A stretch of DNA of 32,307 nt from a virus (lineage: Duplodnaviria > Heunggongvirae > Uroviricota > Caudoviricetes): the IMG/VR virus record IMGVR_UViG_2711768067_000015. One strand, given 5' to 3'. How positions within the stretch are numbered: the first letter of the stretch is position 1; each line of letters begins with the position of its first letter. The notes below the pieces were generated by a model. It ran no database searches. It saw only the letters and a list, made by a program, of their open reading frames with translations, and had not been told where the DNA came from. Below, one piece after another: positions 1,196-30,763 of the stretch. A program made the position numbers and the translations under genes.

Positions 1196-2307
1196 TATGC
1201 GAGCCTCACAATATAGTTAAATGCGATGTTTTTGACGGTGTTTTCCGCGTTACCAGCAGCGTTAACGGTGATGGTGTGTCCATGTGAACCAATCGCAACG
1301 GAGTGCGTGTGTGCACCAATACCGACAGTGTGCTGATGAAAACCAATACCTACAGTATGAGAATGTGAGCCAGAGGAACCTGTTGTTGCTGATGTATATT
1401 GAGTTGCCAGACGCCCAGATGTCAGTGGAATTTTCCCCCCCTGGTTTGCACCATCTGATGTTGGTATTGAATGCGTGTGACTCCCGGCGTTACTGGTAGT
1501 TTTGGTCCCATAGTCAAATAGTGAGGTTGTTTTCGTCCCGTAATCAAACGACGATGTGGTTTTCGTACCCAAATCCGTACTGGATACGCTGGCGCTGTGG
1601 GTGTGCGATTTAATGCCGTCCTGTTCCTGAGACAATACGGCACGACCACTGGCGGGCTTGCCCTTAATCGTCCAGCCACGCATATCAGGGATCACGCCTG
1701 ACGGATAAGCAGCTGCAAGTTTCGGGTATGCAGACTTGTCAAAAGTCTGTCCCTGCATCAGAGCATAACCAGATGGAACTGTATCTGATGGCCACGGGAT
1801 CGGGGCACCTACAGGAAAGGTCGAATTATTTTCCAAACCAAGATATTTAAGGACATCAGCAACAGAGCTTTTTGCCAAAATATCTCGCCCAACCTGTGTC
1901 AGGTCAGCCAAATTAGCGGTATCTTGATTGGTAAAATACGGTAATTTGTTTTCGGATGCTGAAAGATTAGCAAGTGCGGTAAGTATGGCATTAATTCTCT
2001 GATAGTTCTTATCTAATGCAGACGACATTTTTGCGATAAAGCCGGCCTGATCGCCATCGTCCTGTACATCCAGTCCACTTTCATTTGCTGTATATTGTGC
2101 TATTGCAGATGCAATAAAGCTGGCCTGCCGAATAGCCTTGTTGACTTGCGCGCTGGATGCTTTCCCTGCTGTAAATCCTGATAAAAGCGCAGGCAACGCT
2201 TCCCATTCATCCTGCGACATAACATTGGCATTTTTACCCGTTGCAAACGCTTTAAAGTCATTTTTCGCCATCAGAGTAATACTCCCCATGCCCCTACATC
2301 AAAACCA
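866..2307. repeat. Direct repeat copy 1 (about 1.44 kb) spanning the 5' part of tfa and the whole tail fibre gene; identical to 3176..4617
   Basis: ORF-track proteins from three frames are identical between the copies at a constant offset of 2310 bp (1195..2289 vs 3505..4599; 983..1216 vs 3293..3526; 1284..1499 vs 3594..3809; 1422..1679 vs 3732..3989). Borders were read directly from the sequence. Confidence 0.9.
1195..2289 (-). CDS. Tail fibre protein, copy 1 (364 aa, His-rich HxH repeats in the C-terminal tip)
   Basis: Follows the gp48-like baseplate gene and precedes tfa. C-terminus carries [28 protein letters not shown] motifs typical of enterobacterial phage fibre tips. Confidence 0.85.
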
Positions 2308-5261: not shown

Positions 5262-6457
5262 GACTCCACCGTTATAACGATATTTTCCGGGGTACAGTAC
5301 GCAGATTCGTTGTATCTGATATCAATGTTTGATGACGAAAAAGCCCCCGGGGATTTCCCAATCGTCAGTTCCTGAATATCGTAATAGCGTGCATTCCCGC
5401 CACTCACCACGCCAAGATTCGCCGGTGAGTAAATGCGACTTAAAAGGACCGAATCACCAATCATCAGACTATTGATATAGTCGGAAATAGCCTGCTGGAT
5501 CTGCTGCCCTATCTGTGAGGTATAACCCGTAAAAACTTTTAATTTAATCCGGGCATAAACAGGCACATCACTGGAACGCGAGAATTTGATTACATGGGGA
5601 TTGCCGTATTTATCCGGCACCGTAACGGATGTTGTACCGTGAGTGGCTGTCCCCTGACCTTTATTCCCTCTGATAGCCTGAGCAATATCCGTCACATCAC
5701 CACCATCCACAATTACAGCAACAGAGTGTGGCGGTAACCCGTTACCGTCCTCCGAACCAGTATCGTTTTCATAGAGTTTGTGGCGGGTTACACCGGTGAC
5801 ATTAGAAACAGCACCATCCAGTGCTTCAAATGGGGTTATTGATGGCAACGCAACACTTTGCGACTGGCGGATACGTAACTCCGCATCAGTTTCTGCCGGA
5901 GTGCCCACAGTGGCTGCAGCAGGATTGGTTACCGAAACCCAGCCACGGGTTGGCGTATTAATTTCAGTGATAGTTCCAGCCAGCGCCGCCACTGCGCCAC
6001 TGACGGAACATGTTGCGGTCACCATCACTGTACCATCCACGCCTACCACCACTGAAGCAGGCAAACGCCATATCACATTATTACTGTCTTTCACGCTGCC
6101 ATTAATGATGGTTGTTCCGGCAGTTCCTGTAAGAAGCAAATCAACCGTAGAGTTCGTCGCGCCTTTACGTGAAATACCATTTATTTTCACGTTACTGGTC
6201 AGTGCAGCCCCATAGCCGGTTGCCGGTGAAAAACAGTTGTAGACAGTTATCGCCGTATTATTGGCATCATGAATCGCCAGCGCCATCAGAGCCACCATCT
6301 GGCCGTCTTTGCTGTCCGGTTCGAGGTAGGCATCACTGCCATAAATCTGCTGAAAATAGCTAATCAGGGTGCTGAGTATCGTCTGATAATCAGGCGCACT
6401 GATCCCCTCCGCGGTTACCTTTGCAGATAAACCGAGAGAATCAAGGTTCAGAGCCAT
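5258..6457 (-). CDS. Baseplate J-like protein (Mu gp47-like)
   Basis: 399-aa ORF in the baseplate gene string. Size and position match baseplate wedge J-family proteins. Confidence 0.7.
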   Translation of the reverse strand: MALNLDSLGLSAKVTAEGISAPDYQTILSTLISYFQQIYGSDAYLEPDSKDGQMVALMALAIHDANNTAITVYNCFSPATGYGAALTSNVKINGISRKGATNSTVDLLLTGTAGTTIINGSVKDSNNVIWRLPASVVVGVDGTVMVTATCSVSGAVAALAGTITEINTPTRGWVSVTNPAAATVGTPAETDAELRIRQSQSVALPSITPFEALDGAVSNVTGVTRHKLYENDTGSEDGNGLPPHSVAVIVDGGDVTDIAQAIRGNKGQGTATHGTTSVTVPDKYGNPHVIKFSRSSDVPVYARIKLKVFTGYTSQIGQQIQQAISDYINSLMIGDSVLLSRIYSPANLGVVSGGNARYYDIQELTIGKSPGAFSSSNIDIRYNESAYCTPENIVITVES

Positions 6458-6810
6458 TACGCCTCCGATGTAACAGTCGTTATTCCATAGAGAGTGTCGA
6501 TTTCAGCGGAAAACATGACACGTCGGGTCGTGGTATCCACCGTCGTATTGAAAGAGAGGATTGATTTAACGCCCCGCGTTTCGAGGATGCGCTTACGGAT
6601 CGCAAGATTGTAGGTTTCCGGCTTCTGCTTACCGAGTACGGACTGGATCCACGGAGTCCCCTCGGTGGTGTCGAGAAACCATTGCCCATACCACAATTCG
6701 AATCGCGTTTTTACCGCCTGCGCCACGGCCTCCGGTGAGTTAATCAGCCAGGTGTCATCACCGCTGCCAAAGGTGTAATCGCCATCGGCGTCTTCACGTC
6801 TGTATCGCAT
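6457..6810 (-). CDS. Small baseplate protein (GPW/gp25-like, Mu gp46-like)
   Basis: 117-aa ORF translationally coupled between the spike-like and J-like genes. Confidence 0.65.
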   Translation of the reverse strand: MRYRREDADGDYTFGSGDDTWLINSPEAVAQAVKTRFELWYGQWFLDTTEGTPWIQSVLGKQKPETYNLAIRKRILETRGVKSILSFNTTVDTTTRRVMFSAEIDTLYGITTVTSEA

Positions 6811-7562
6811 CAGTTTACCCCATCGGTATTGCTTCCACCGCGCTGAACACCGCCATGAGTGTGCGTATCATCGATTGGCTTGCCGTTAGCCTTAACGCTC
6901 CCCAAGAACTCAACAGCACCAGTGATTTTTGAAGCCACACCAGAAACAACAGACCCCACCATGCCCCCCATCCAGGTTAACAGGCCATGAATGGTTACTT
7001 TCTCAGAAAAATCAGCCAGAGGGGCAACCACATCAAGACCACCCGGGGCGACAATTTTAATTTTCCGGGTATCAGGATTAAGCTCAAAATAGGTGCTGCC
7101 GTCGTCACTACGCAACTGTGTGGCACTGATATTAATACCGCTAATCTTCCTCGCCTGCGACTGGGGACCGGCTATACAAAACGCATCCGATAAATCATGC
7201 ATTCTGTCATCGACCGGCTCCTGTATCCCACCGCTCTGCCACCAGAAATCAATACAACGATCGGCAAAAACGACAAGACACTCATCCCCGGCTTTAACCG
7301 GAAAAGTCAACGTACAGCCTCCGCCGCGCGGAAATACCACTGGCACATCCACCAGCAACGGGTAATTTTTGGTAATGCGGTTACCGTCGTTATCCTTTTC
7401 AACCGAACGGATAGCTGGCTGTACAACCGCCGTCACCGCGTCGGGATCGAATGACTGAACAATGCCAGGCAAGGCGACACGGATCTGGTTCTTTGTTGTT
7501 TCCCGTTCAGATTTGAATGTTTCGGCAAGGTCGCCGCTGCGGGTCTGGTCAGATACTGCCAT
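6810..7562 (-). CDS. Baseplate spike/assembly protein V-like (Mu gp45-like)
   Basis: ORF begins at the ATG at 7562 (MAVSDQTRSGD...) with a GGAGCC ribosome-binding site; the track's longer version uses a TTG. Size and position match phage baseplate spike proteins. Confidence 0.7.
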   Translation of the reverse strand: MAVSDQTRSGDLAETFKSERETTKNQIRVALPGIVQSFDPDAVTAVVQPAIRSVEKDNDGNRITKNYPLLVDVPVVFPRGGGCTLTFPVKAGDECLVVFADRCIDFWWQSGGIQEPVDDRMHDLSDAFCIAGPQSQARKISGINISATQLRSDDGSTYFELNPDTRKIKIVAPGGLDVVAPLADFSEKVTIHGLLTWMGGMVGSVVSGVASKITGAVEFLGSVKANGKPIDDTHTHGGVQRGGSNTDGVN

Positions 7563-7581
7563 TAAGTAGGCTCCAGAAAGC

Positions 7582-7606
7582 AAAAAACCCGCCGGGTGGC
7601 GGGTTC
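7582..7606 (-). terminator. Rho-independent terminator after the 79-aa membrane protein gene
   Basis: Minus-strand hairpin AACCCGCC-ACCC-GGCGGGTT followed by TTTTTTG, 16 nt downstream of the stop at 7622. Confidence 0.6.
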
Positions 7607-7621
7607 ATTATTGAAGTTTCA

Positions 7622-7861
7622 TTACTGCTTGTTTGCTTCTAACGCTTCAGCTATTCGGCGAAGATACTCATTGTTTTTAAATGAAACCATGATGCACTCA
7701 AAGAATATTCGGCAAAATACAGCACATAACAAAAGCACTAAAGCGCCAGCAGCCTTCCCATTAACAAACGTTATAATGGCGGCAACAACCAGAAGTAACA
7801 TTGTGATGCCATACAGAACGTTGATGATTTTTGGAGTTATTAATTTATCAAATCCGAACAT
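7622..7861 (-). CDS. Small membrane protein (79 aa, two predicted transmembrane helices); moron-like cargo gene
   Basis: Two hydrophobic stretches (ITMLLLVVAAIITFV and ALVLLLCAVFCRIFFECIMV). AAGGA ribosome-binding site, with its own promoter-like element upstream and a terminator downstream. Confidence 0.6.
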   Translation of the reverse strand: MFGFDKLITPKIINVLYGITMLLLVVAAIITFVNGKAAGALVLLLCAVFCRIFFECIMVSFKNNEYLRRIAEALEANKQ

Positions 7862-7897
7862 GCGACAAATTCCTTATCGTGAAAGTAGAAGTACCAC

Positions 7898-7925
7898 ATT
7901 ATAATTACGAGTGATTAATCAACAA
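7898..7925 (-). promoter_or_regulatory. Candidate sigma70 promoter for the 79-aa gene
   Basis: On the minus strand: TTGTTG (-35), a 16-nt spacer, then TATAAT (-10), ending about 36 nt upstream of the ATG at 7861. Confidence 0.4.
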
Positions 7926-8256
7926 TCTTTTTGCATGGAAAGGAACCGATGATTTTCGGCGCATCCATGCTGTTCTGCAGCAGTTGGACATTCAGGAATC
8001 GCGTTTCGGTACCAGGGCGACGAATGTATTCAAAGCCGTAGTTGTTACCGTCTTTGGCAGGCATAAGCCCCATGTCTACTTTCAAACCATTGGTACCCAG
8101 TTCGGTGATTTTTTGAGAGGTAACTCTTTCACCGTTGATTGTCGATAACTCGCCCTGGTTTGCAACCATAGTGTAGCCACCGCATTTAACCGTGAAGCCA
8201 TCCGCCCACGCGCTGCACGCAGAAAAGACAGCTAACAGAAAAATAATACCCCTCAT
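7915..8256 (-). CDS. Secreted or lipoprotein-type small protein (113 aa) of unknown function
   Basis: N-terminal signal peptide MRGIIFLLAVFSACSAWA with an AWA/DG signal peptidase I motif (or possible FSAC lipobox). Two Cys in the mature part. Starts 4 nt after the upstream 353-aa gene. Confidence 0.65.
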   Translation of the reverse strand: MRGIIFLLAVFSACSAWADGFTVKCGGYTMVANQGELSTINGERVTSQKITELGTNGLKVDMGLMPAKDGNNYGFEYIRRPGTETRFLNVQLLQNSMDAPKIIGSFPCKKIVD

Positions 8257-8259
8257 TGC

Positions 8260-9321
8260 TCATCCCCTTTGCAAAGCCGATTGCGTATACAGATCCGCCG
8301 CGCCACGCGCTTCGCACATCATATCCATGTACCACGCCTGGCCTCTTGTATCGCCACTGTACATAATCCCGCGCACAATATAAACGCCATCCGTTGCGAT
8401 GCTGGCAGGCTGCGATGTGGTGCCGCTGAGCGTGATATTTCCGTCCGTGTTCTGGTCGGTGATCTGACCACCAGCCATCGCAATATCGTTGTTCGACAAC
8501 GCGGTACGATAGACGGAAGCCTGATCCAGCTGAATGAGCCCGTTAACCCGGATGTTCGGATTAATAAGAGCGCGGACGTTTACGCCGTTGCCGATGGTCT
8601 GCTGCGGCATGCCAATAAGCCCGGTAGCACTGTTGAGCACAATCGCTTCGTGAACATATTCATTAGTCGCCACCATCTGGCGCTGACCGTCCACGAATTG
8701 CCATGTTGCGCCACATTGCCCGGCTACATTATCCATAAGATGCCGCGTCATGCCAAAGAGTACCCGCCCCCGGGGGAATACAGTAGCAGGCATTTCAGGC
8801 GTCAGGCCTTCGGTCGCGCCTTTGTCTTCGAAGTCTTTCATCAGCGCACGGTTCACATCAGCGACTGTGTAACCGGCAGCCAGCGTCTGTGAGGTTATAC
8901 TGGTGGCAAAAGCCAGATCTGTATCGGCTGCCTGAATCAGGACGTAGGAATCAACCGGACTGTCTTTTCCTGTGACCGAGTAGCGAATTTCACCGCTGAA
9001 AATCAGTCCGTAGTTGCGGCCATCACTCTGGCCCACGTCCGCCGCATCAACCTCCCGCACGATCCCGACGTCGCTTGCCGACACCTCCGGCGCGATACCG
9101 TCGTAACCCGCCATCAGACGCACTTTCGAAAACTCCTGTCCGGTAATTCGGTTCACAGTATCTGCCGAGAGGTTATAAATTTTGATAGTCCCTACCCGGG
9201 ACGCGCTGCTGATGTTGAACCAGTCGATCGTAAAGGTGACTTTGAAATCACTTAGCTCAATTCCCTGACCGTTCCCGTCCACAAGCTGCAGCTCGAAATG
9301 TCTCATCCAGTTCTGTGACAT
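8260..9321 (-). CDS. Tail/baseplate protein (353 aa), possibly hub-like
   Basis: Long ORF in the tail gene string between tape measure and the baseplate genes. Function inferred from position only. Confidence 0.6.
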   Translation of the reverse strand: MSQNWMRHFELQLVDGNGQGIELSDFKVTFTIDWFNISSASRVGTIKIYNLSADTVNRITGQEFSKVRLMAGYDGIAPEVSASDVGIVREVDAADVGQSDGRNYGLIFSGEIRYSVTGKDSPVDSYVLIQAADTDLAFATSITSQTLAAGYTVADVNRALMKDFEDKGATEGLTPEMPATVFPRGRVLFGMTRHLMDNVAGQCGATWQFVDGQRQMVATNEYVHEAIVLNSATGLIGMPQQTIGNGVNVRALINPNIRVNGLIQLDQASVYRTALSNNDIAMAGGQITDQNTDGNITLSGTTSQPASIATDGVYIVRGIMYSGDTRGQAWYMDMMCEARGAADLYTQSALQRG

Positions 9322-9629: not shown

Positions 9630-10213
9630 CCGCCCCCCAGTAATGACGCCACGTTACCCGTGATGCTTTTCAGCAGTGAAGTATCTGGAGGCTTTGTGGT
9701 TTTGTTGCCGCTATTCTGTACCGCCGACGTGCTGGCCCCTTCCTTCATGTTGGTTTTATCCGCGACGGTAATCTGCTGTGTCAGGGAGATAAGGACCTCC
9801 CTCAGGGTGAGGACGGCGGACAGGACGTTTTCGGTTGTCTTGTCCGTCGTCACTTCCAGCGCCCGGATCAACATGTTGCTGTACAGCCGTTTACCGGTTA
9901 CCACATCGAAGGGGATACGACTTTCCTGCAGATCCAGTAGCTCCTGATACGTCTGCTGAGGACTCAGGCCGAGCAGGCTGGTAGCCGTCAGGTTACTGGC
10001 AAAATCCAGCAATGCGCCGCCACCGGCGAAACCAACCTCCATCACCACTTCTGACGGTTTTTTATAGGCATGATCAGCGACAGCGGCCCCGACCTCTACC
10101 GGATGCTCTGTTATTTCAAGCATATCTGTATGCTTCTCTGAAATAACAACACTGGGAACAATCATTCCTATTTTTCTGCTCTGCTGATGAAAAAGTGTAG
10201 AGAGAATATCCAC
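9626..10213 (-). CDS. Tail protein (195 aa) immediately downstream of tape measure
   Basis: ORF with start/stop overlap to neighbours. Function inferred from position only. Confidence 0.6.
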   Translation of the reverse strand: MDILSTLFHQQSRKIGMIVPSVVISEKHTDMLEITEHPVEVGAAVADHAYKKPSEVVMEVGFAGGGALLDFASNLTATSLLGLSPQQTYQELLDLQESRIPFDVVTGKRLYSNMLIRALEVTTDKTTENVLSAVLTLREVLISLTQQITVADKTNMKEGASTSAVQNSGNKTTKPPDTSLLKSITGNVASLLGGG

Positions 10214-12201
10214 TAACCCACCCTCACCTGATTACTTCGCATGACCTGAGCATTTGCAGACTGTTGCCGACGTGCAACCTCATTACCGACAGCGTGCGGA
10301 TCTCCGCCACCGTAAATGTGGTAAGTATTTTGCTGGTTAACCTCTGTCACTTTGCCACTAATTCCTGCCACGGCAGCCTTATTAATCAGCTCTCGGGAAT
10401 AGATATTTCTTCCATTTTCATGCTGGATAATACTGCTCATCAATGCTGACATGGTTTGCGGATCGCTCATATTCAGGGCAGCCCGGGGATCCACTCCCAG
10501 TCGTTGCGATACAGCCCTGATATACGCAGTTGTGTTGTTATTATCAGACGCAGGTGCCCAGGTAGAGATAATTTTCTCCACACTGTTTATTCCCCGTCCG
10601 GCGTACAGCATTAACTGACGAGCAAGAGCCCGTAATCCATCAAAGGCAGTTTCAAATCTGGCAAATCGCCCGCCCGGGCGTTCAAGAGAAGCCCCTGCCT
10701 GACCAGCAAAATTAAGGTTTCCCGGATTGTTATTCCGTTCTCCTCGTTTCGTAGCCTGTGCATGTTGTTCCGGCTCATCATCACCAAACCAGCTGCGTAC
10801 CGTCCGGCCCACGCTACGGGGATCGAATCCCCAGTGCTCTTTAATCCAGTCGGCAGTACTGTTAGCGCTGTCTGTAACCATCGGCATCGCTGACGGATTT
10901 GCGCTGCCCTGATTAAGTATCTGTTTGCCGATGCTGACGGCATCAGCCCAGCGGCCATCTTTGATAGCGTTGAGCAGGTCGGCGATCATGTTCAGCATTT
11001 TGCTGAATTCGCCCATCTGGTCGATGAAGTTGCTGAAATCCCACTTCAGGGACCATGATTTGGGGTCAATATTGAGTAGTTTCGCCAGCGCTTTCGCCAG
11101 GTCGTTAACGGTCGTTTTAAGGTCACGAACCATCTTCAGCGCGGCATCGACCTCCGGTTTCCACTTGCCCCAGTCAATCAGGCTGTCGCCGCCTTCCTTC
11201 CAGGTCTGATAGTCCTCCCACAGGAGGGCAATACCCGCCGCCAGCGCGGTAATGAGGCCAATCGGCGACATCCAGAACGTACTGTTCAGAATGCGCAGCG
11301 CAATCGTCAGTGCGCCAAACAGCGAGATCAACTCCCGCGTTTGCTTATCCAGCGATTGCCACCAGGTGATGAGGCTTGATGTTCCTTCAATCAGTCTGAA
11401 GAACAGCCGCCCGATAATATCCCCGAGCGCCAGAATGCCTTTTATGGCTTTCGTCAGGGTCTGCTCGATACGAGGGAAGTTGTCCAGGATATGGCGGCGC
11501 AGGGTGTCCAGCGAACCCGCAAGCCCACCCGCAAGATTAGAGCCGATTTTGTCACGGGCCATGCCTGCCATCGCGCCAAACTCACGCAGGGAGGTCATAA
11601 ATTTGTTGGAGCTTCTGGCCGCCTCGTCAGCATTGAAGCCGATAGCTTTCGCCATTGCGCTGTACTGCCCGGAGAAGCCACCCACACCCCGGCGCATCGC
11701 CATAAGGGTATTTTCGTCAATGCCCAGCATCTGCGCATACTGGTTAGCCCGGTAATACGGCATGCCGCTGAGCTTCTGGCCTACACCTGTAAAAATAGCG
11801 GCCATGTCACGCATGTTACCGCTGGCATCCCGTGTCTGTACCCCCAGGCGATTCAGAAATCCCTCTGCCCCGGGATTGATACGAATAAACCGGGAGAGGC
11901 TTTCCAGAGAAGATCGCGCAGCGTCCACGCTGCCGCCAACCTGCGAAACCGCATAGCCAATAGACTGAATTCCCTGGACTGTCGCGCCAGTGCGCTGTGA
12001 CGCCCAGTAAAGATTATCCAGGCCGGAGGCAATCTTAGCCGTAAAGGCCACCACGGACAGTGCAGCTCCTTCAACGGCCAACCCCATTTTGATGACATTT
12101 GCAGTTGTCCCGGCGAGGACAGAACCGAATTTTTTTGCTCCAGCATCATCCACACTGAAGCCAAGCGAGACGAGAAAATCTTTAATAGTTTCAGCGTTCA
12201 T
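10213..12201 (-). CDS. Tail tape measure protein
   Basis: Long, Ala/Gly-rich, predicted helical ORF downstream of the tail chaperone. The ATG at 12201 has a GGAGAGAGG ribosome-binding site; the track start at 12222 is a TTG. Confidence 0.85.
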   Translation of the reverse strand: MNAETIKDFLVSLGFSVDDAGAKKFGSVLAGTTANVIKMGLAVEGAALSVVAFTAKIASGLDNLYWASQRTGATVQGIQSIGYAVSQVGGSVDAARSSLESLSRFIRINPGAEGFLNRLGVQTRDASGNMRDMAAIFTGVGQKLSGMPYYRANQYAQMLGIDENTLMAMRRGVGGFSGQYSAMAKAIGFNADEAARSSNKFMTSLREFGAMAGMARDKIGSNLAGGLAGSLDTLRRHILDNFPRIEQTLTKAIKGILALGDIIGRLFFRLIEGTSSLITWWQSLDKQTRELISLFGALTIALRILNSTFWMSPIGLITALAAGIALLWEDYQTWKEGGDSLIDWGKWKPEVDAALKMVRDLKTTVNDLAKALAKLLNIDPKSWSLKWDFSNFIDQMGEFSKMLNMIADLLNAIKDGRWADAVSIGKQILNQGSANPSAMPMVTDSANSTADWIKEHWGFDPRSVGRTVRSWFGDDEPEQHAQATKRGERNNNPGNLNFAGQAGASLERPGGRFARFETAFDGLRALARQLMLYAGRGINSVEKIISTWAPASDNNNTTAYIRAVSQRLGVDPRAALNMSDPQTMSALMSSIIQHENGRNIYSRELINKAAVAGISGKVTEVNQQNTYHIYGGGDPHAVGNEVARRQQSANAQVMRSNQVRVG

Positions 12202-12378
12202 TATCCTCTCTCCATTTCTCAATGCGCCGCTGGTTATCCGCTTTTACCGCCAGATGGTCATTCAAGAGAGCAATATCGTACAAATCGACAGAGCCATCTT
12301 TAAGTGCTGTATAAGGAATTAACCCGGCGTCAACCGGATTGAGAAGGTAGGACAGCCCGTCCGGCAGGCTGTTAAACG

Positions 12379-25188: not shown

Positions 25189-25686
25189 TCATTGTTGCCC
25201 CCACAAACAGACTTCACGCTCAATCTCACGACGAGTCATCAGACCTTTCCATTGCTTACCGCCAGCGTATGTCCAGCGACGTAGCTGATCACATGCGCCT
25301 TTGATATCGCCCTGGTTGATTTTGCGCAGAAGCGTCGATGTTCTGAAATTGCCAGCACCCACGTTGTAAACGAATGAGTAAAGAGCGCCGCGCGTTGTTT
25401 CCGGTATATCGACTTTGATGTACGGGTTAATTTGTCTGGCTACCGTGGCAAGGTCTTTATTCAGGAGGGCTTTGCATTCTGCTTCGGTATACGTTTTACC
25501 GGGAATGATGTCTTTTCCTGTATGCCCGTGACATACAGTCCATACGCCAACGATATCTTTGTATGGTATGTAGCTGACACCTTCCAGACCATCGTTACCA
25601 CCTGGACCAGTGATTAACACTGATGCTATAGCAATAGCCCCGCCACCAATAGCAGCTGCAACAGCTTTTCGTAATGATGGAGGCAT
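25189..25686 (-). CDS. R: SAR endolysin (phage-21 R-type lysozyme)
   Basis: 165-aa ORF with an N-terminal Gly/Ala-rich signal-anchor-release segment ([18 protein letters not shown]), directly downstream of the holin with ATGA overlap. Confidence 0.85.
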
Positions 25687-25901
25687 TATTCACCTCTCGC
25701 AGCCTTTCTTCTGTCTTCTCTGATTTTGAAGTACAGATTTGTCAGATAAGTCAAAAAGCCCAGAACTAGACTTCCCAGCACACCAATTGCAGCCCACTGT
25801 GACGGACTGACCTGATCCAACCACTTTAAAAACCAGTATCCCGCACTACCAGCGGATGTTCCGTAGGCAATGCCAGTAGAGATTTTGTCCATTGATTTCA
25901 T
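25686..25901 (-). CDS. S: Pinholin (phage-21 S-type, class II holin)
   Basis: 71-aa ORF with a dual-start motif (MKSM), two transmembrane segments and a charged C-terminus; a near match to phage 21 S as I recall it. GGAGG ribosome-binding site upstream. Confidence 0.85.
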
Positions 25902-26266: not shown

Positions 26267-26755
26267 CTATGCTACATGTTTAATTTTCTCTACACGTTTC
26301 CGATTTTTAAACGCACTATCCAGAACCGGGTAAATCATAAACAACGAGGCATTAAGGATTTCGTCAACTTCCCGTCGACAGGTTGCGAGCGACGGTTTTT
26401 GAATGCGCCCGCCGCCACGGCATAACATCTTGCGAGGTCTTGCGACGCGATGATAGTAAGATGCAATGGCGTGCTTGGAAGAGCCATGAGCGTAGTAGCT
26501 GAGGAGGATTCCAAAGGCTTTCTTGTCAATGTACATGACGGAATCGACGACCTGAGAAATCAACATTCCATCATCATCATTACACATTGGCCTTGTCATA
26601 ACTCTTCCCGGCTCTACGCTCTCCATGAACTTCGCTATTACGCTGCTCATGCGCTTTTCCAGACGACCTGAATAAACCCATGCGCCCCACAGTTCAAGCC
26701 AGCCATTCAGCCACTCATGCTGTTCTTTGGTGAGGTTTAGTTCTCTTATGCCCAC
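26267..26755 (-). CDS. Q: Late gene antiterminator Q (phage 82/933W type, not lambda-Q type)
   Basis: 162-aa ORF directly downstream of ninI. Motifs ELWGAWV and [13 protein letters not shown] resemble 82-family Q proteins as I recall them. Start is GTG in the track. Confidence 0.7.

Positions 26756-28367: not shown

Positions 28368-30763
<2,396 letters not shown>

Follow-up and report, generated by a model that had tools for sequence, protein, structure and literature searches.

Between the baseplate hub and spike genes of an E. coli prophage, on the minus strand at 7582-7925, lies a small unit made up of a promoter-like site, a ribosome-binding site, a 79-aa open reading frame and an intrinsic terminator. 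Over 1 kb, the window (the whole stretch of DNA analysed, 32,307 nucleotides) and the prophages of E62, DEC5E and other strains are 99.6% identical. The tail module is of the myovirus type, similar to that of Salmonella phage SEN34, and includes the tape measure gene (10213-12222) and the genes for a Dit-like protein, the plug, the hub, the spike and Baseplate_J; the near-identical prophage L001 additionally carries a DUF3383 protein at the sheath position. The features that matter for the analysis are as follows.

8260-9321, minus strand: baseplate hub, upstream boundary of the slot (PHROG 196)
7915-8256, minus strand: 113-aa protein, predicted to be secreted, first gene of the hub-spike slot (PHROG 3443; NCBI 'STY1065/STY2022 family')
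7920-7925, minus strand: -35-like hexamer TTGTTG, read from the sequence
7898-7903, minus strand: -10 hexamer TATAAT, a perfect match, separated from the -35 by a 16-nt spacer, read from the sequence
7871-7875, minus strand: ribosome-binding site AAGGA, 9 nt from the ATG at 7861, read from the sequence
7622-7861, minus strand: 79-aa DUF4282 open reading frame with its ATG at 7861 (Pfam PF14110, PHROG 12129)
7577-7606, minus strand: intrinsic terminator with a 9-bp stem, a 4-nt loop and a T-run, ending 15 nt before the spike ATG (scan, folding and comparison)
6810-7562, minus strand: membrane-puncturing spike, downstream boundary of the slot (N-terminal PF18352 and GpV apex motif)
7571-7989, minus strand: laterally exchanged cassette, shared with E. 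coli Z1323CEC0003 and LWY24 (98.6% nucleotide identity)
26267-26755, minus strand: lambdoid Q antiterminator (PF06530, 87 bits)

The minus strand reads from the end of the 113-aa gene, with the -35-like hexamer in it, through the -10, AAGGA, the 79-aa frame, the hairpin with its T-run and a GGAG to the spike ATG at 7562. The sigma70-like TTGTTG-16-TATAAT site, the ribosome-binding site, the reading frame and the terminator all lie where the initial annotation had put them. That annotation had also placed the unit between two tail genes, which is incorrect on the upstream side, where the neighbour is the 113-aa protein, no recognisable tail component. Its gene follows the hub gene by 3 nt, and the product, with a signal peptide at its N-terminus and two cysteines (C25 and C108) that are invariant, probably reaches the periplasm by export. 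Nearly all relatives have a homologue in this position, at 55-71% identity where the hub is 96-97% identical, with the last ~25 residues conserved, and this exported protein is itself a candidate receptor-masking or exclusion factor. Two other gene calls at the junction were set aside: a spike start at TTG 7583, as RefSeq relatives are annotated from ATG 7562, and an antisense frame on the plus strand (7596-7904, 102 aa), as the conservation across homologues (37-100% identity) fits the minus-strand frame.

The -35-like hexamer falls on the final codons and stop of the 113-aa gene (ATT GTT GAT TAA), and transcription is predicted to start near 7890-7894. A consensus promoter scan of the window does not list the site, because its -35 matches TTGACA at only 3 of 6 positions. 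The position-weight score of the site is 10.7, and sites of at least 10.6 number only 4 per strand in the 32-kb window; a site this good with a -10 ending 25-45 nt from the start codon is seen at 2.1% of 663 control phage genes. Analogous promoter-like sites are found in four other contexts in which homologues of the 79-aa gene occur. The Pantoea homologue, a diverged copy in another genomic context, has TTGAAA-17-TAAGAT (score 15.0), the Edaphovirga homologue has a well-placed TTGTTG-17-TAAAAT, and Klebsiella siphovirus-type prophages have TTGATA-15-TAATAT, with the -35 overlapping the tape-measure stop codon. None is found in copies that abut a tape-measure gene. These scores and placements are suggestive and make the promoter call plausible, and we consider the site at 7925-7898 to be probably active in the lysogen. 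An Rfam scan of 7300-8400 returned only a sub-threshold chance match to a snoRNA.

Downstream of the 79-aa gene, the terminator scan finds the hairpin GAACCCGCC-ACCC-GGCGGGTTT at 7606-7585, with nine pairs of which six are GC, followed by TTTGCTTT. The 56-nt stretch that holds the hairpin folds at -18.6 kcal/mol (z = -3.0 relative to shuffled sequences). All late genes of the prophage are on the minus strand downstream of Q, with a 71-aa frame, lysozyme, the Rz gene and terminase following it. The lysis cassette at 24.6-25.9 kb consists of the 71-aa frame (25686-25901, in the holin position), lysozyme and the Rz gene, and the equivalent of the 71-aa frame in L001 is annotated 'phage holin, lambda family'. 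In lambda and HK97, terminators in the late operon are read through during lytic growth; given the position of the late genes downstream of Q, the same would apply to the terminator at 7606-7577. An IS21-type element (28810-30611, plus strand), with an integrase-core transposase and an IstB-like ATPase, is inserted between ninG and the replication gene P, and a prophage with this insertion may be defective for induction.

A bounded slot with exchangeable cargo

Among the 12 relatives whose tail modules were compared, 9 have the terminator ahead of the spike gene, with five kinds of cargo besides DUF4282. In SEN34, 606R2, Mulock and several E. coli relatives, a GC hairpin with a T-run ends 20-23 nt short of the spike ATG, often with the identical sequence ACCCGCCACCCGGCGGGT, and the same position is occupied in loci L002, L003, L004 and L020-L023, even where the cargo is on the opposite strand. 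In YP3, GZ7 and KFu024, no terminator was found at the position before the spike gene. As judged from this comparison, the terminator at 7606-7577 is a feature of the slot and not specifically of the 79-aa gene. Since it is shared by all slot cargos, it is no evidence for the autonomy of the gene or for its arrival with a terminator of its own. Functionally, the slot terminator does the job of a moron terminator, as it prevents transcripts of the cargo from running on into the repressed tail genes. The alignments thus describe the hub-spike junction as a bounded cargo bay, with the conserved end of the ~110-aa secreted protein on one side and the terminator before the spike on the other.

The cargo itself is diverse. 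E. coli relatives with the slot terminator carry DUF2335, YafO, an HMG-box protein or an opposite-strand gene. The HMG-box cargo is a 241-aa protein so named in RefSeq, which has no Pfam match; the YafO cargo combines the YafO toxin with a 190-aa partner and occurs in a relative with a more diverged spike (69%). Phage relatives fill the slot with other, unnamed genes, or in GZ7 with a DUF4236 protein. A PADLOC scan of ten other slot cargos gave no match to a known defence system.

The distribution of the 79-aa gene is that of an accessory gene. The unit, counted as a 349-bp cassette, is present in 86 of 5,426 complete E. coli genomes, in 84 of these at ≥99% identity, and a 1,001-bp query comprising the unit and its flanks matches 333 E. 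coli genomes, 41 of which cover at least 80% of the query. Relatives whose hub is 96-98% and whose spike is 97-98% identical have no DUF4282 gene and carry instead a DUF2335 membrane protein, the HMG-box protein or small opposite-strand frames. Nor does the gene occur in SEN34, vB_EcoM-606R2, Mulock, YP3, GZ7 or most related E. coli prophages.

Sequence similarity across the junction also points to transfer of the unit between prophages. In the prophages of Z1323CEC0003 and LWY24, the hub is 47% and the plug 54% identical to those of the window, yet 7571-7989 is 98.6% identical at the nucleotide level and the protein encoded next to the 47% hub is 100% identical. The sequence that flanks this cassette in Z1323CEC0003 and LWY24 cannot be aligned to the window by blastn. 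Their copy also contains 75 non-coding nt left over from the 3' end of the 113-aa gene, and the transferred copy therefore came from a window-type arrangement. The downstream border of the exchanged segment, 7571, falls between the T-run of the terminator and the spike start codon. On the other side, Yersinia phage YP3 has the 113-aa gene at 94% nucleotide identity together with another cargo, and the homology ends at ~7927, just upstream of the -35. The GC content is 0.37-0.395 at 7600-7999 versus 52-56% in the flanks. Taken together, these comparisons show that the unit is accessory and has moved laterally, and they largely support its reading as a moron. In Erwinia rhapontici, DUF4282 also occupies the hub-spike slot; the protein is 68% and the flanks are 58-77% identical, a similarity that fits long residence rather than recent gain.

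The DUF4282 protein and its homologues

The 79-aa protein, which the initial annotation had not assigned to any family, matches Pfam DUF4282 (PF14110) with 42.2 bits against a gathering score of 27, residues 2-71 covering positions 2-85 of the 86-position profile, and PHROG 12129 over its full length (E = 8e-48). A Pfam scan at E ≤ 0.1 returns, besides DUF4282, a sub-threshold match to YbhQ and nothing else, and an NCBIfam scan gives sub-threshold noise only. A literature search on DUF4282 and PHROG 12129 produced nothing relevant, with the family unmentioned in the library searched. Membership of DUF4282 thus adds a name and no mechanism, as the family has no assigned function; nor is it confined to phages, as described below. 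The homology search recommended earlier has in this way supplied a family, and has linked the protein to no known exclusion or defence protein: a PADLOC-DB 2.0 scan of the 79-aa and 113-aa proteins gave no hits, with no family at E ≤ 1 for the 79-aa protein.

The two predicted transmembrane helices and the charged C-terminus proposed from the sequence are borne out. Kyte-Doolittle hydropathy gives two hydrophobic segments, at ~12-33 and 39-60. AlphaFold2, run with a 37-sequence alignment, models helices at 10-33 and 37-78 with a mean pLDDT of 86. Over the 37 aligned sequences the N-terminus has on average 1.9 K and R residues, the loop 0.7 and the C-terminus 5.7. The hydropathy and the charge bias lead to a predicted N-in/C-in topology with a periplasmic loop of 3-5 residues, and the protein is accordingly modelled as a two-helix hairpin of the inner membrane. 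A Foldseek search of the AlphaFold2 model against PDB and BFVD found nothing below E = 0.38, with generic helical hairpins as the only matches.

Invariant in the alignment are F4, I8-T9-P10, Y17, R51, E55 and F61-K62-x-x-E65-Y66-L67-x-R69-I70, so that the N-terminal F-DKLITPK motif and the C-terminal R51/E55 and FKNNEYLRRI are kept while the transmembrane cores vary; the conserved, predicted cytoplasmic C-terminal helix carries FKNNEYLRRIAE. The combination of variable cores and invariant motifs suggests specific contacts at the cytoplasmic face, beyond mere membrane anchoring, and points to conserved surfaces that make specific interactions at or inside that face. One allele of the window protein (P0070, 72 aa, on 47 contigs), which circulates in E. 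coli, is identical to residue 44 and then out of frame, so the DUF4282 gene has been inactivated in at least one lineage.

We collected 160 homologue loci and sorted them by their neighbouring genes. The arrangement of the window, with hub, ~111-aa gene, DUF4282 and spike in this order, occurs on 31 IMG/VR contigs of E. coli and also in Erwinia rhapontici. A second group of ~35 contigs from Klebsiella, Raoultella, Buttiauxella and E. coli CX08 has the order DUF3383 protein, tube, chaperone, tape measure, DUF4282, Dit-like protein, plug, holin, lysozyme and DUF2514, with a gap after the tape-measure gene of mostly 8-16 nt. In Klebsiella siphovirus-type prophages the gene directly follows the tape measure after a gap of 56-61 nt, and in Edwardsiella phage GF-2 and one relative it abuts the gene of a lytic tape-measure protein. 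In a lambdoid siphovirus-type prophage it lies directly upstream of gpJ, and in Pantoea lambdoid prophages it follows the lysis cassette, with IS-flanked remnants occurring as well. Across at least five types of tail module, phage-borne copies thus neighbour a tape-measure, hub, spike or gpJ gene. Three of the tail types have the gene after the tape measure and one has it before gpJ, and in the window it lies between hub and spike. A GC hairpin with a T-run lies 3' of all phage-borne homologues checked, and the hairpin sequences differ between contexts.

The copies that abut a tape-measure gene have a distinct layout. In the ~35-contig group, phage GF-2 and locus L178, the DUF4282 start lies 0-16 nt past the tape-measure stop and the ribosome-binding site overlaps this stop. 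Such a gap leaves no room for a promoter, so that these copies must at the least be co-expressed with the late genes; their best promoter scores are within the control range. A blastn search of the tape-measure/DUF4282 junction against isolated phages, run to see whether the gene is dispensable in this lineage as well, found no match. In the prophage lineage with this layout (L036-L041, L153-L184 and L187), an HP1-family holin, lysozyme and DUF2514 lie inside the tail module, right after the baseplate plug gene.

Further homologues (37-52% identical) are chromosomal and outside prophages. One site lies between accA and yaeR-tilS, downstream of lpxB-rnhB-dnaE (L063-L069, L077 and L082, ~6001-6240), in cryptic Escherichia clades and Pseudocitrobacter; stand-alone copies among metabolic genes are found in Serratia, Yersinia and Enterobacter. 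Of the 5,426 complete E. coli genomes, none has the accA-yaeR paralogue. Searched with a profile, 1.84 billion representatives yield 628 related clusters at 50% identity, most of them single-domain proteins of 75-140 aa and a few with 5-6 tandem copies. In these few (P0120, 507 aa; P0131, 341 aa; P0138; P0211), each of the 5-6 tandem DUF4282 hairpins keeps F-x-x-[LM]-I-T-P and R-x3-E-x5-F-[KR]-x-N-E. At three loci (L025 in a hub-spike slot, L137 before gpJ and L031 in a chromosome), the 60 nt upstream of the DUF4282 start share an inverted repeat, GCTGAA-n-TTCAGC, followed by CTCTGGT. This shared leader stands in place of the promoter layout of the window; it may have a regulatory role and move together with the DUF4282 gene.

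Proposed function and rival explanations

Morons have been defined as genes that are extra relative to related phages, deviate in GC content, have a promoter and terminator of their own and are expressed from the prophage (PMC3594210). The 79-aa gene is extra relative to related phages, has a deviant base composition and is followed by a terminator, one that it shares with the other slot cargos. The moron reading of the initial annotation is supported by presence and absence among relatives, lateral transfer, GC content, a well-placed promoter-like site, a terminator and a Q antiterminator under which late transcription would read through, and has to be amended in that the terminator belongs to the slot. 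On this reading the gene is an ordinary moron, and it belongs to an already named family, DUF4282.

The nearest parallel in function is HK97 gp15, a moron in the tail operon with its own terminator directly before the tape-measure gene, whose product is an inner-membrane exclusion protein that blocks genome entry in a manner dependent on the tail of the incoming phage (PMC3594210). As in HK97, the window has a small gene inside the tail operon of a Q-regulated lambdoid prophage, with a small product predicted to reside in the inner membrane, promoter-like elements and an intrinsic terminator directly before the next tail gene. The two differ in that gp15 has 62 aa and one transmembrane helix while the window protein has 79 aa and two, and in that the HK97 slot lies between chaperone and tape measure while that of the window lies between hub and spike; moreover, exclusion is shown for gp15 and is an analogy for the window protein. 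BLASTP gave no alignment of the two proteins, and hhalign a probability of 0.2%. The gp15 moron was reportedly described by Juhala et al. 2000 and Cumby et al. 2012. T4 Imm (83 aa) is similar in size, its hydrophobic stretches are consistent with a small membrane protein, and according to the T4 record it prevents superinfecting DNA from reaching the cytoplasm; unlike the 79-aa gene it is an early gene of a virulent phage rather than a prophage moron, and hhalign gave a probability of 0.1% for the pair. A term search of a 2024 review of superinfection exclusion (PMC11436027) found nothing comparable.

We propose the following working, and regard it as about evenly balanced whether the locus is, as this supposes, an accessory, exchanged expression unit (a moron) in the hub-spike slot of a SEN34-like, Q-regulated E. 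coli prophage that operates in this manner. In the lysogen, the sigma-70 promoter at 7925-7898 would drive a ~300-nt transcript encoding the DUF4282 protein, and the terminator at 7606-7577 would stop this transcript before the spike gene and so keep the repressed tail genes from being transcribed. In lytic growth, RNA polymerase modified by Q would read through the terminator. The protein would insert in the inner membrane as an N-in/C-in helical hairpin, and its job would be to block the entry of an incoming phage genome at the inner membrane, that is, superinfection exclusion as with HK97 gp15, whose gene occupies an equivalent place in a tail operon. This last step, drawn by analogy, is a tentative suggestion. 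Exclusion of DNA entry is the best single guess because copies recur beside tape-measure, hub, spike and gpJ genes; its rivals are kept alive by the tape-measure-abutting copies, by the chromosomal paralogues and by the near absence of a periplasmic surface. In particular, a periplasmic loop of 3-5 residues offers little surface with which to meet an incoming tail. A wider claim, which we hold to be doubtful, is that DUF4282 hairpins are widespread, unrecognised inner-membrane blockers of phage genome entry, carried by phages of at least five tail architectures. On that reading the genes would sit beside the phages' own envelope-penetrating parts and would have become fixed chromosomally in Serratia, Yersinia, Enterobacter and cryptic Escherichia, and F-DKLITPK, R51/E55 and FKNNEYLRRI would mark the binding site for a channel component of host or phage.

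The layout of the tape-measure-abutting copies bears on another account, by which the protein is a late-operon membrane protein co-transcribed with the tail genes and acting in the lytic cycle, for example in stopping progeny or superinfecting phage from injecting into the infected cell or in tuning the membrane before lysis, and the promoter-like site is incidental. The start of the gene 0-16 nt after the tape-measure stop in the ~35 Klebsiella, Raoultella and Buttiauxella contigs, GF-2 and L178, with an overlapping ribosome-binding site and promoter scores in the control range, fits this account, and the window gene is itself in line with a Q-dependent late operon. Nevertheless, we consider it unlikely for the window, where the gene is dispensable, being missing in relatives with a 96-98% identical hub and spike; promoter-like sites are also well placed in the Pantoea, Klebsiella siphovirus-type, Edaphovirga and window copies, and chromosomal copies lie outside prophages altogether. 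Those chromosomal copies, which imply that the function of DUF4282 need not concern phages, favour instead a lysogenic-conversion or general membrane-physiology gene (a modulator of stress, transport or the envelope) acquired from chromosomal DUF4282. The stand-alone homologues at 37-52% identity, at the accA/yaeR-tilS site or among metabolic genes, and a wider family of 628 clusters that are mostly single-domain proteins of 75-140 aa are what such an origin would lead one to expect. Such a role gives no reason, however, why phage copies recur beside tape-measure, hub, spike and gpJ genes, and we hold it, too, to be unlikely.

The size of the protein, its two transmembrane helices and its charged C-terminus also resemble class II holins and small membrane toxins, and a YafO toxin is among the other cargos of the slot, which would be in keeping with a membrane-damaging effector, namely an abortive-infection, holin-like or toxin-like hairpin whose triggering would make the membrane collapse. 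This is very unlikely in our estimate: no holin, toxin or PADLOC model matches, a lysis cassette is already present in the prophage at 24.6-25.9 kb, the gene stands alone with no sensor or antitoxin partner, and a constitutive lethal gene would be counter-selected, yet this one is conserved at ≥99% in 84 genomes. A class II holin as such was rejected, with no holin family in the Pfam scan and the gene outside the lysis cassette. Finally, the position between hub and spike might suggest a structural or assembly component of the baseplate. We find this hardly credible for a gene that is absent from most close relatives, encodes a predicted integral membrane protein and occurs outside tail modules and outside prophages; a tail structural protein was rejected on presence and absence, as the gene is not conserved across phages that share the tail module.

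If the DUF4282 protein does exclude phages, as we tentatively prefer, an uncharacterised family of 628 clusters at 50% identity would gain a function. The passage of tailed-phage DNA across the inner membrane is a step that is still poorly understood, and a protein of 79 aa would then be a compact tool for its study. If it has no phage phenotype, the gene is one more moron without an assigned role.

The slot has an interest of its own as a source of candidate prophage accessory genes, among them those for DUF2335, DUF4236 and YafO-linked proteins and several unnamed ones. Other cargo sites are familiar from temperate phages, such as the bor and lom positions of lambda, and the P2/P4 defence hotspots were reportedly described as cargo hotspots of temperate phages by Rousset et al. 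2022. Like these hotspots, the slot is a fixed junction between conserved core genes that holds diverse, exchangeable small genes. Unlike them, it lies inside a baseplate module and is bounded by a conserved terminator, and neither the ten other cargos nor the 79-aa protein has a PADLOC match. In KFu024 (L024, ~1700-2050, plus strand of the locus), where RefSeq leaves the slot empty and a terminator follows the 117-aa gene, the sequence read by eye appears to contain an unannotated, cysteine-rich small reading frame on the opposite strand.
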